A DNA stretch of 64,000 nucleotides from an uncultured Methanoregulaceae archaeon (lineage in GTDB: Archaea; Halobacteriota; Methanomicrobia; Methanomicrobiales; Methanospirillaceae). Under the pieces are notes generated by a model, which had not been told where the DNA came from, ran no database searches, and saw nothing but the letters and a program-made list of their open reading frames with translations. This document shows, one piece after another, positions 32,670-54,752 of the stretch. A program made the translations under genes and the position numbers. Location: assembly GCA_963705255.1 (NCBI GenBank), contig OY970061.1:1568001-1632000 (forward strand), given 5' to 3'. Every line of letters begins with the position of its first letter. Within the stretch, counting starts at the first letter, position 1.

Positions 32670-32984
32670 ATGACCGACGGAACACCAACGCAAAAACAGC
32701 TCTTCCTGTTCGAACACGATGCAGGCCGCCTCGAACTGCTCATCCGTATCGTCTACTGGATCCTCATAGGCATCGTCCTCGGGGTCTACGGGATCATCGC
32801 GTTCATCGTCCTGTTCATCCAGTGGTTCCATGTCCTGATCCTCGGAAAGCGTAGCCAGGCGCTCTCTGATTTCGCAAAAGGCTACCTTGAATACATGGTA
32901 CACGTGCTGCCGTACACGTACATCATGACTGACAAGCGGCCGGACATCCTGCCGGTACCGGTGAAGATACTCGAAGAACGCTGA
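32670..32984 (+). CDS. DUF4389-like membrane protein
   Basis: RLELLIR...FIQWFHVLILGKR...Y...YTY.MTDKRP pattern. Confidence 0.75.
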   Translation: MTDGTPTQKQLFLFEHDAGRLELLIRIVYWILIGIVLGVYGIIAFIVLFIQWFHVLILGKRSQALSDFAKGYLEYMVHVLPYTYIMTDKRPDILPVPVKILEER

Positions 32985-33244
32985 TGCGTTCTTCTCGTCC
33001 TCGGGGTCTGATGACCCCTCGGAATTCGAAGAAGCGTAGACACGAGACTGCTGCTGGCCGTTGCTGGCCGGCTTTCTTTTTTCTGTCTGGCTGCAGGGAC
33101 CTGTACCACCCCTACTGCACGAAATCTCTTGGCAATTTTTCGATTGGGCCCTGCTTAAAAATTCAATCAAGGTTTGATGATCCGGATCACATTTTTAATC
33201 GTAATATGATCGCGATAAAAAATTTCAGTCAGGGTTCGATTAAA

Positions 33245-33510
33245 GATCTGATCCGCTCTTGGGGACTGCGCCCCCACCACTCAGGTACAGCGAAGACCTT
33301 TCAGCGTCTTCTCGACACTGCCACAGTCTGCTGCGACAATGGCAGTATTCCCCCCATGGGGAGAGTGCAGTATTACCTGTCATATGGCTTATCAAGTGTC
33401 TTCTCCTATGGGGTATTAATCGGTGAGGCCCTGAAACCGCACTCAAGCCCGAAGGGTCTGGGCTCACAAATGCGGCAGGGGTGCTTGCCCACCCTGCCAC
33501 GCGGAGATGT
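33245..33510 (-). ncRNA. Candidate uncharacterised structured RNA (~265 nt)
   Basis: At least six hairpins, an internal closing helix and 5'/3' pairing; G-U pairs and UUCG/GAAA loops favour the minus strand; TATA-like box upstream and T-tract downstream; no convincing ORF. Confidence 0.55.
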
Positions 33511-33564
33511 TGAGAATTATCCTCCCCGAGGTTATCTGAAAATATTTAAAAAAAAAGAGTATTC

Positions 33565-35169
33565 TCAGATCAGTTCACTCGATATCTTGGCAAACGTTGC
33601 GGTGAAGATGCCGGGCATTCCGCGGATCTCCTCCATCACTGCTGCGGGGACCTCGCTGTCCACGTTCAGGACCATGATCGCCTGTTCGCCGGGGTTGATC
33701 CGCCCGACCTGCATGCCCGCGATGTTGATGTTGCACTTCCCGAGGATGGTCGAAGCCCTGCCGATGACCCCCGGCTTGTCGAGGTGGCGGGAGACGATGA
33801 CATACCCTTCTGGGATCATGTCCATGGTGTAGCCGCCGACCGCAACGATTCTGCTTCGGCCCTTGAAAAAGACGGTCCCGCTGACGGACTCGCCGCCCTT
33901 GTCGGTCTTGATCTTTATCGTGATCAGGTTCCTGAACCCTTTTGCCTCCTGCGTGACAGTCTCGCTGACCGCGATTCCCCGCTCCCGTGCGATGAACTCT
34001 GCGTTCACGATATTGACCGGCTCCTGGAGGATCGGGTCGAGGAGCCCCTTGAGGGCGAGCCGTGTTACGAACTTCATGCTGCCGGCATAGGCCGACAGGT
34101 CCCCGCCGTAGATGCACTCTACGGAAGAGAGGCGCCCGCCGGCAGTCTGGATGGCAAACCTGCCCATCTTCTCGGCAAGCTGGGCGTAGGGCTCGAGCAC
34201 TTCCGCCTGCTCCGGCGGGACCATGGGTGCATTGACGACATACTTCGCCGACCCGCCCCTGAGCACCTCGATGCACTGCTTTGCAACGGAGACTGCGACA
34301 TTCAGCTGTGCCTCGACCGTACTCGCACCAAGGTGTGGCGTGACGATGACCTGGTCGAGCGAGAGGAGCGGGGACTCGAGCGGGGGCTCCTCCTCGAAGA
34401 CATCGAGGGCTGCCCCGGCTACCTTGCCGCACTTGATAGCGTCATAGAGCGCCTTCTCGTCGATGATGCCGCCGCGGGCGCAGTTGATGATCCGGACGCC
34501 GTCTTTCATCGTGGCAATGCTCTTCGCGTTGATCACGTGCCGGGTCTCCGCGATCAGGGGAGTATGGACGGTGATGATGTCGGCGACTTTGAAGAGGTCT
34601 TCCATGGACATCATCTCGACGCCGAGCTGTGCCGCCCGCTCCTTCGTGATGAAGGGGTCGTAGGCCACGCACTTCATGTCCAGTGCGTTCGCCCGCTTTG
34701 CCACCTCGCGGCCGATACGCCCGAAACCGACGATGCCCAGCGTCTTTTCGTTGAGCTCCACGCCCATGAACTTCGAGCGCTTCCACTCCTTCTTCTTCAG
34801 GCTCGCGTTCGCCTGCGGGATGTTGCGGGCGAGCGCCTGCATCATCGCCATCGTGTGCTCGGTTGCCGCAAGGGTGTTGCCCTCCGGCGCGTTGGCAACG
34901 AGGATGCCTTTCCGCGTTGCCGCGTCCACGTCGATGTTGTCGACCCCGACACCCGCACGGCCGATGAACCTGAGATTTCTCCCCGCCTCTATCACTTTCG
35001 CGGTGACTTCCGTGCCGCTCCGCACGAGCAGGGCGTCGTAGTCCCCGAGGATCCTGCAGAGCTCGTCCTCGGAAAGGCCCGTCATGACATCAACGTCGCA
35101 CGCCGCCCTGAGGATCGCAAGCCCTTCTTCCGCCAGCGGGTCGCTGACGAGCACCTTTGCCTTTGCCAT
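33565..35169 (-). CDS. serA: D-3-phosphoglycerate dehydrogenase
   Basis: RAGVGVDNID, GFGRIG, NCARGG, TPHLGAST, C-terminal ACT domain (DKPGVIG). Confidence 0.96.
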   Translation of the reverse strand: MAKAKVLVSDPLAEEGLAILRAACDVDVMTGLSEDELCRILGDYDALLVRSGTEVTAKVIEAGRNLRFIGRAGVGVDNIDVDAATRKGILVANAPEGNTLAATEHTMAMMQALARNIPQANASLKKKEWKRSKFMGVELNEKTLGIVGFGRIGREVAKRANALDMKCVAYDPFITKERAAQLGVEMMSMEDLFKVADIITVHTPLIAETRHVINAKSIATMKDGVRIINCARGGIIDEKALYDAIKCGKVAGAALDVFEEEPPLESPLLSLDQVIVTPHLGASTVEAQLNVAVSVAKQCIEVLRGGSAKYVVNAPMVPPEQAEVLEPYAQLAEKMGRFAIQTAGGRLSSVECIYGGDLSAYAGSMKFVTRLALKGLLDPILQEPVNIVNAEFIARERGIAVSETVTQEAKGFRNLITIKIKTDKGGESVSGTVFFKGRSRIVAVGGYTMDMIPEGYVIVSRHLDKPGVIGRASTILGKCNINIAGMQVGRINPGEQAIMVLNVDSEVPAAVMEEIRGMPGIFTATFAKISSELI

Positions 35170-40800: not shown

Positions 40801-41261
40801 CCCGGCCCCGCAGCACCAGGAATATGGTTGCCAGGCTTGCGACCGGGTTCAGCGGATATACCGGCGCACCGGATATAGTTGCTCTGTAGAAAACCTATTT
40901 TATCGTGTGATTCGCTTATATTCTTTGACGGTTATGAGCGTGACCCCCTCTCTCAGGTCGAAGAATTCGTCAGAATTCTTCGAACAGCAGTCTCCTCCAA
41001 GAGCGTCAATTATGAAAACCGATGATTTCTCCAGAGCAGATATATTTTACCAGATAAACCAGGAAATGAAAGCACAGGGCCCGTATCAGCTCCGGACAGG
41101 TGGAACGAGAGGGAGAGGCAGTTTCTGCACGGTGCTGCCGGTTGAAACGTCCGATGATTCTTTCCGGTTCGGGGAAAACGCCCGTTTCACAGTGTGGATG
41201 GCTCCCGGATGAGAACAATACGCTTATATCAGCGGATAAAAAAATACTATCCGGGTATGTT

Positions 41262-54442: not shown

Positions 54443-54565
54443 TGATAGCAGCTTGGTATGCTTCCCGGGGACTCGCGTACCTCGATACAACATACTACGT
54501 GTGCCGGCTTAACTGCTGGGTTCGGAATGAGACCAGGTGTGTCCCGACAGCTATGGCCGCTATCA
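54443..54565 (-). rRNA. rrf: 5S rRNA
   Basis: GATAGCGGCCATAGC...CTCATTCCGAACCCAGCAGTTAAGCC...GCTGCTATC; terminal helix GGTGATAGC/GCTATCACC. Confidence 0.93.
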
Positions 54566-54680
54566 CCACATGTTTGCTTTTAGATGCTGGTTCTGAACGA
54601 AGAGCGATCGCATCATCTCCGAAGTCGAAGAATCGCAGGCGATTCTTCTCCTCGTCGATGTGTTGACACACATCTCCGAA

Positions 54681-54752
54681 AGCCAAGGTCCGGATTTGAA
54701 CCGGAGTGTAGTTGATCTGCAGTCAACCGCGTGGCCGCTCCGCCACCTTGGC
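54681..54752 (-). tRNA. tRNA-Cys(GCA)
   Basis: GCCAAGGTGGCGGAGCGG...GACTGCAGATC...GGTTCAAATCC GGACCTTGGCT. Confidence 0.95.

Follow-up and report, generated by a model that had tools for sequence, protein, structure and literature searches.

The window, the 64,000-nt stretch of DNA analysed here, contains the serA gene for D-3-phosphoglycerate dehydrogenase (33565..35169, minus strand; Pfam 2-Hacid_dh_C, 2-Hacid_dh, PGDH_inter and ACT) and, converging on it, a DUF4389 gene (32670..32984, plus strand; PF14333, E 3.9e-21), beyond which lies a tRNA-Val gene. Together the two protein genes bound a spacer of 580 nt. A folded element (33245..33512, minus strand) begins about 53 nt past the serA stop codon, on the same strand as serA, and has an orthologue in the nearest relative (L008:3250-3495). 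The original prediction had described this element as an independently transcribed, possibly ribozyme-like RNA, and the structural features that it listed are all present on the minus strand, in place or at most one base away. As read from the sequence, these comprise closure of the two ends (UCCGC 33505-33501 with GCGGA 33256-33252), a hairpin GGCAGGGUG / CACCCCUGCC (33498-33474), a long hairpin closed by CCGCA / UGCGG (33475-33437), a helix of CAGGUA (33379-33374) with UACCUG (33287-33282), and the hairpins ACUGCCA / UGGCAGU (33346-33317), GAAGAC..GUCUUC (33311-33292) and GGGGGC-GCA-GUCCCC (33275-33261). The first two hairpins, both stable, make up a 5' domain (33437..33498, minus strand) that is specific to this lineage by BLAST.

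An A+T-rich box, TTTAAATA, is also present about 40 nt upstream of the closing helix (33543..33550, minus strand); read in the direction of the element it occupies 33550-33543, one base from the 33542-33549 first given, and it is a candidate TATA box of the window copy only. Downstream of the element, a T6 run (33222-33217) falls within an imperfect palindrome of 76 nt (33182..33257), which abuts the 3' end of the element and is found as a single copy in the source genome by BLAST. In addition, the same spacer holds a second GAGAAGA...UCUUCGA module (32971..32996, minus strand), recognised by pattern match.

Fold and polarity of the element

Folding bears out the minus-strand polarity that had been proposed. 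The minus strand of 33245-33510 has a minimum free energy (MFE) of -110.7 kcal/mol, compared with -93.8 +/- 5.0 for dinucleotide shuffles (z -3.42), and none of 200 shuffles was equally stable, whereas the plus strand reaches -96.7 (z -1.11), a stability equalled by 26 of 200 shuffles. Because the minus strand folds beyond its shuffles and the plus strand far less so, the polarity call is sound. The computed MFE structure keeps both 5' hairpins and all three 3' ones, as well as the closure of the ends. Both strands of the proposed CAGGUA/UACCUG helix lie where they had been placed, but the MFE structure pairs the middle of the element otherwise, and a covariance model of the repeat family described below (R1) predicts a third arrangement there. 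All three sources thus pair the centre of the window copy differently.

Known RNA families and coding potential

None of the 4227 Rfam families matches the element at its gathering score, in keeping with the claim that it belongs to no recognised class; at the same thresholds, the only hits in the whole window are two tRNAs and the rRNA operon. When 33000-33800 was scanned permissively, five sub-threshold matches were returned, the best of which is to a plant microRNA model (26.1 bits, where the cut-off is 53.4) on the plus strand of the palindrome at 33182-33257, and this palindrome is the sole source of the microRNA-like, sub-threshold matches of the region. Six further family loci had no Rfam match at E <= 1. 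The two archaeal multi-helix RNAs that the element resembles in size, RNaseP_arch (RF00373) and Archaea_SRP (RF01857), differ from it in that neither matches within it and both score above their cut-offs elsewhere in the genome, with 212 bits for the RNase P RNA and 166 bits for the SRP RNA. The absence of RNase P and SRP character therefore holds, and identity with either RNA was rejected; when five family members were compared with both by BLAST, only words of 7-10 nt were shared.

Two open reading frames overlap the element (33240-33500, minus strand, 86 aa; 32984-33832, plus strand, 282 aa), and one might suppose either that a short protein-coding gene lies here or that G+C-rich spacer DNA happens to fold well. 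Both suppositions are exceedingly improbable. The shuffles described above speak against a chance fold, neither reading frame has a Pfam family, gaps of 1, 4, 5, 6 and 12 nt relative to the orthologous copy at L008 would break any reading frame, and homologous copies are present elsewhere. The non-coding status of the element is upheld by the lack of Pfam families in the two frames, and protein coding was ruled out on this ground together with the frame-breaking gaps. The structure of the element is real and unclassified.

History of the serA locus

The serA gene was found in 39 of 41 genomes of the genus. Among the 29 other serA loci of the genus that were fetched, the element is present at a single one, L008 of genome G041, the nearest relative of the source genome (G000), with a serA protein 99% identical to that of G000. 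The order serA-DUF4389-tRNA occurs at 13 of the 29 loci; the spacer is no longer than about 100-200 nt at six loci (L015, L021, L023, L030, L034 and L036), and at seven it measures about 490-985 nt and is occupied by other sequence. Comparison of the G000 and L008 copies showed that the 5' 107 nt are 89% identical and that both ends, CCGC...GCGG, are retained; in the 3' half, which is beyond the reach of BLAST, whole hairpins differ. The block downstream that includes the DUF4389 gene is 89.5% identical between the two loci and the end of serA 95%. When the region of the 5' domain (33390-33515) was used as a BLAST query against the 151 family genomes, it was found only in G000 and G041, and the five remaining hits were of 24-41 nt (E 9e-4 to 8e-3).

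Absence from 28 of the 29 serA loci, together with a 5' domain found only in G000 and G041, suggests that the element is a recent insertion into a short convergent spacer and not an old gene. The L008 locus also contains a 46-nt fragment resembling the DUF4389 gene (L008:3178-3219), which lies between serA and the element, and a block of about 360 nt with a long inverted repeat downstream of the element (L008:3500-3860). The extra fragment and the inverted-repeat block point to this spacer as a hot spot of rearrangement.

A dispersed repeat family

Weak BLAST matches in three other genomes have motifs in common with the 3' half of the element. These matches yielded a 20-nt motif common to the family (ACAGGUAAUACnnCACUnUC; 33361..33380, minus strand), which the window copy fits with two mismatches and which is present in 8 copies in G000 and in up to 35 in genome G118, many of them at contig ends; a reversed-pattern control gave 0-2 matches per genome. 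The R1 model was then made from 18 copies. Against R1 the window copy scores 29.7 bits over 33254..33483 on the minus strand (the 3' 230 nt), with E values of 2.2e-6 in 451 nt and 6.7e-4 in 134 kb; in a genome-wide search it scores 28.7 bits over 33254-33427, with a borderline E of 0.02. The BLAST relatives L002, L003 and L004 score 42, 27 and 129 bits, respectively, and the orthologous copy at L008 is not detected by R1 at E <= 1. The window copy belongs to the R1 repeat family and shares its conserved 3' domain.

In G000, R1 gives 30 hits at E <= 1 and 16 at E <= 1e-3. The element had been presented as a distinct locus, and this view gives way to a dispersed, multi-copy family with 16-30 model hits in the source genome. 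Across the order, R1 hits were obtained in 34 of 151 genomes, with 18 of 29 in one family (f1), 13 of 20 in a second (f2) and 2 of 101 in the other four; a second draw gave hits in 29 of 33 genomes of the genus, and relatives carry up to at least 21 scored R1 copies per genome, a lower bound because no more than 21 candidates were scored in each. An exact 26-nt pattern from the 3' domain matched 73 stretches in the species-representative genome collection, of which 70 lie in records titled Methanoregula, Methanoregulaceae or Methanomicrobiales and three are bacterial. Apart from the two genomes out of 101 noted above, the distribution of the family by R1 is restricted to two families of Methanomicrobiales.

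The candidate promoter and terminator of the window copy, that is, the TATA-like box and the T6 run, are present as claimed, but they are not features of the family. Among 69 family copies there is no upstream A+T peak, the content being flat, and T-runs are found upstream of 26 copies as against downstream of 25. By crude gene calls, the commonest setting is a convergent spacer: 25 copies in G000 comprise 12 between convergent genes, 2 between divergent genes, 6 in tandem sense and 5 in tandem antisense position, and no protein gene is consistently adjacent around 8 G000 copies or around the two arrays described below. These counts bear on the idea that the element is a structured 3' untranslated region of serA, acting as a terminator or stabiliser, for which its strand, its closeness to the stop codon, the T6 run that follows it and its place between converging genes could all be cited. 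We regard this as very unlikely, as relatives with the same gene order mostly have a spacer of about 100-200 nt or unrelated inserts, and the module adjoins unrelated genes in both orientations. The context counts are instead the pattern expected of tolerated insertions and not of a 3'-UTR device.

Family anatomy and covariation

The short copies of the family, of about 125 nt, have a 5' C-run that pairs with an internal G-run and so encloses one hairpin and a stem; after this central part come a small hairpin, then a G/C hairpin and lastly a tail, RRGAGCG. The last 50 nt or so are nearly invariant, as judged from 72 distinct 3' ends from several genera. Longer copies have extra hairpins inserted at several points, and some MITEs, the miniature transposable elements with inverted repeats, in records titled Methanoregula contain the 5' hairpins alone, or none.

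In the window copy, the equivalent of the family central stem spans 33352..33413 (minus strand), with GGAGA (33406-33402) pairing with UCUCC (33364-33360) as P3 in the R1 alignment; the corresponding helix is GCGAU/AUCGC in short copies and GGGA/UCCC in L008. An extension of this stem, P1, may be formed by CCCC (33413-33410) with GGGG (33355-33352) on the minus strand. This is our own placement, and R1 would draw the 5' strand of P1 from a CCCC farther upstream, near 33481-33478. The conserved 3' domain (33254..33287, minus strand) follows the same order and sequence pattern as the 72 distinct family 3' ends, and consists of a small hairpin, UACC-UGAGU-GGUG, the terminal hairpin GGGGGC-GCA-GUCCCC at 33275-33261, and a tail, AAGAGCG, at 33260-33254. 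The terminal hairpin and tail were placed according to R1 and the small hairpin by us; in its stead, R1 would pair UAC (33347-33345) with GUG across a 67-nt insert.

A search for homologues and covariation had been suggested as a check on the element, and at the level of the family it was affirmative, with a family recovered and helices kept through compensatory changes. In an alignment of 74 copies, 92.9% of cells are paired, compared with 85.4% in shuffles (none of 500 reached the observed value) and 53-62% in a control with slid partners; 16 of 22 pairs have changed on both sides, and G-U pairs outnumber A-C pairs by 121 to 29, or four to one. These figures overstate the case, since the copies are related and their alignment is one fitted to the model. 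Nevertheless, the G-U excess and the compensatory changes indicate selection on one folded strand, and it is for the family, rather than for the single copy, that compensatory helices and polarity of the kind seen in conserved structured RNAs were found. A candidate pseudoknot between a 5' CUCUU and the 3' AAGAG tail, noticed by eye, has mostly one-sided changes, and the motif is absent in genus g19.

One hairpin of the element (33290..33313, minus strand) is an instance of a smaller module, GAGAAGA-stem-loop-UCUUCG(A/C), which is present in 189 strand-specific copies in G000, compared with 2 in a reversed-genome control. Its stems covary, and a second, purine-flanked hairpin often precedes it. 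GA dinucleotides flank the stem on both sides in all 189 copies, as they would in an L7Ae-binding K-turn, but the search pattern itself demands them; complementarity of the flanks with a 3-nt bulge is 0.44, against 0.32-0.44 at other offsets. A GAGAAGA...UCUUCGA module also occurs in the rRNA operon of the window (54625-54650), between the 5S rRNA (54443-54564) and a tRNA (54681-54752).

Carriers of the family core

The inverted end GGCUCUGUWGAAAYCCU occurs in G000 as 27 pairs that bound elements of 159-578 bp. An 8-bp flank duplication (<= 1 mismatch) accompanies 16 of the 27, compared with none of the 27 in a shifted control, and a strict 3'-domain motif, with 18 copies genome-wide in G000, is found inside 7 of them. 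The family is thus dispersed, short and transposase-less in the manner of MITEs, with ordinary genes as neighbours. Many dispersed copies with target-site duplications, which the original prediction had named as the MITE-like outcome that would count against it, were found for the family and not for the window copy, which has no ends. The best end-like matches near the window copy have 4-5 mismatches in 17, at a background of about one per 430 nt in the window, so that degenerate ends were rejected as no better than chance; with no definable ends, the copy also has no target duplication. A resemblance of 33100-33180 to the right arm of a MITE was judged by eye only and was dropped. Elsewhere in the window, at 40880-41038, lies a complete miniature transposon of 159 bp, whose IS5-type ends have one mismatch each and whose flanking 8-mers are the same but for one base.

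The same ends flank elements of about 1.0 kb that encode an IS5-family DDE transposase (NF033579, PF01609), and such elements occur in 42 of the 151 genomes of the order as well as in records among 88 stretches that contain the 21-nt insertion sequence (IS) end GGCTCTGTWGAAAYCCTATTT exactly. This end is identical across haloarchaea, Methanosarcinales-type methanogens, Methanobrevibacter, Methanomicrobiales and a few bacterial and DPANN bins (loci L124-L203), which is unusually wide conservation for a transposon end. No R1 hit was obtained at E <= 1 in 25 full-length IS loci. We therefore consider the folded core to be cargo and not an IS relic, and derivation of the core from the parent IS was excluded. 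In G000, the transposase query matched only two short fragments with stop codons (C1:1149226-1149426 and 1987709-1987900), so that no intact partner for the G000 MITEs is detected with this query and current mobility in this genome is not indicated.

The core is found in other carriers as well. In G118 it lies inside a MITE of 302 bp whose ends, of 26 bp, are different ones (36 matches to these ends, control 0), and in G172 inside a third inverted-repeat shell. G065 has a tandem array of 6.8 x 215 bp (L330:8735-10200) with a super-unit of 431 bp, in which each unit holds one folded core and two internal variants alternate; the array is flanked by genes for a CN-hydrolase and a nucleoside diphosphate kinase. 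In G201, four copies form a looser cluster, which, like the G065 array, is situated between ordinary genes. Simple hitch-hiking is insufficient as an explanation of why three MITE shells, and also arrays, contain the same core.

The size of the element and its multi-hairpin, strand-specific fold resemble omega-RNA scaffolds, and we considered whether it is a guide-RNA-only relic of a TnpB/IscB element (IS200/IS605 type) or, alternatively, a REP element whose movement depends on a Y1 transposase. There is hardly any likelihood of either. None of the 8 copies of the motif in G000 has a TnpB-sized gene beside it, no R1 hit adjoins either of the genome's two TnpB-type zinc-ribbon matches (2035489 and 2543446), and OrfB_IS605 (PF01385) was not found there. 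The Y1 transposase (PF01797) is present in 0 of 29 f1 and 1 of 20 f2 genomes, but in 22 of 101 genomes of other families, and the inverted ends and 8-bp duplications of family copies are marks of DDE transposition. A TnpB omega-RNA origin was accordingly rejected on the lack of any copy beside a tnpB-type gene in G000, and a Y1/RAYT-driven REP system on the lack of the transposase from repeat-bearing families; both ideas are largely refuted.

Discussion

Our analysis suggests that the structured element downstream of serA is likely to be a decayed, rearranged and end-less copy of a Methanoregula-type mosaic hairpin repeat, one that is often moved as the cargo of IS5-type MITEs, and that a unique new RNA gene is improbable here. 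In this repeat family, a central stem and a conserved 3' domain of about 50 nt are combined with a changing set of inserted hairpin modules, and IS5-ended MITEs that carry the module can be moved by transposase made elsewhere. One copy probably landed in the short convergent spacer between serA and the DUF4389 gene in the common ancestor of G000 and its nearest relative, and then lost, or never had, recognisable ends. A 5' extension specific to the lineage would subsequently have been added to it, and exchange with other copies would have replaced its 3' half. The hairpins would form in a single strand, be it RNA or single-stranded DNA. Any transcription would most simply come by read-through from serA, in which case the element would be at most a 3'-end structure and not a dedicated RNA gene.

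Several observations do not sit easily with a decayed repeat copy. The window copy is end-less, its genome-wide R1 match is borderline, the L008 copy goes undetected, and the compensatory changes and G-U excess of the family leave room for a real RNA function. One may ask, then, whether the element is after all an independently transcribed functional ncRNA, either as a copy recruited by the host or because the whole family consists of transposon-carried small-RNA genes like SINEs. The strand-specific fold, the TATA-like box and T6 run that frame the window copy, the fact that the nearest relative retains the closing ends and the 5' domain, the covariation of the family, the near-invariance of the 3' domain across genera and carriers and the lack of an Rfam match are all consistent with such a gene. 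Yet the element is missing at nearly all other serA loci, its 5' domain has changed no more slowly than its flanks, and the family has neither a positional promoter or T-run signal nor a consistently adjacent protein gene. In addition, tandem contexts are without orientation bias, and the copies are mosaic and decaying. An independently transcribed RNA is therefore quite unlikely, and the original claim of one at this locus is not supported, given a dispersed, MITE-type family and a single occupied locus among the 29 others.

A related idea is that the conserved core itself, that is, the central stem with the 3' domain, is a functional RNA that unrelated miniature transposons have picked up time and again and that has been multiplied in arrays. 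It is tempting to speculate that such a core could promote its own spread as an RNA, or provide the scaffold of a ribonucleoprotein. The idea is kept alive by the near-invariance of the 3' domain and the strand specificity of the pairing, and we think it unlikely but worth holding in mind. If it were true, archaea would have in this family an equivalent of the mobile RNA genes of SINE type, and the host would have kept a derivative of it in the serA-linked copy, whose 5' domain is private.

Folded interiors are not unprecedented among prokaryotic MITEs, as illustrated by the Correia/NEMIS elements of Neisseria, the enterobacterial ERIC sequences, bcr1 of Bacillus and SM1-4 of Sulfolobus. Like these, the present family is short, gene-less and multi-copy, lies mainly between genes and has an interior of stable hairpins, and many of its copies have the inverted ends of a known IS and 8-bp target duplications. 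It differs in that its core does not come from the parent IS, in that this core is found in at least three end shells and in tandem arrays, and in that conservation is much stronger in the 3' domain than elsewhere; the window copy, moreover, is without ends. To our knowledge, archaeal MITEs have been little studied. The ends of the carrier MITEs are those of the archaeal IS5-family elements (NF033579, DDE_Tnp_1), and their 8-bp duplication presumably fits the ISH1 subgroup of IS5, whereas the element in the window has neither ends nor gene, and G000 has transposase fragments only.

The bacterial REP/BIME (REPIN) sequences offer a second comparison, being mosaic repeats of small hairpin modules. 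The family resembles them in the very high copy number of its small strand-specific hairpins, of which the GAGAAGA module is an example, and in the combination of modules as mosaics or clusters in intergenic spacers, often after genes. In contrast to REP/BIME, the families that bear the repeat are nearly without a Y1 (RAYT-type) transposase, the units are larger and branched, and part of the family moves as DDE-type MITEs. The omega-RNA-only derivatives of TnpB/IscB are alike in having gene-less, structured, strand-specific repeat copies, but the present family has no link to tnpB and has DDE-type ends and duplications. Among the passages retrieved from the literature on archaeal MITEs, Methanoregula repeats, insertion sequences and RNA motifs, none describes this repeat or RNA, and the matched passages of PMC2678158 and PMC13343696 do not concern it.

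For annotation, the lesson of this locus is that a convincing 'novel structured RNA' beside a housekeeping gene can be repeat DNA. The R1 model and the motifs reported here will allow dozens of false leads of this kind to be masked in each Methanoregula genome. The reading that we favour leaves the near-invariance of the 3' domain across carriers and genera unexplained; if an RNA or protein partner underlies the conservation of this folded domain, that partner would be worth finding. In the family itself, archaea provide a clear example of mosaic hairpin repeats that have been partly mobilised as the cargo of IS5-type MITEs.
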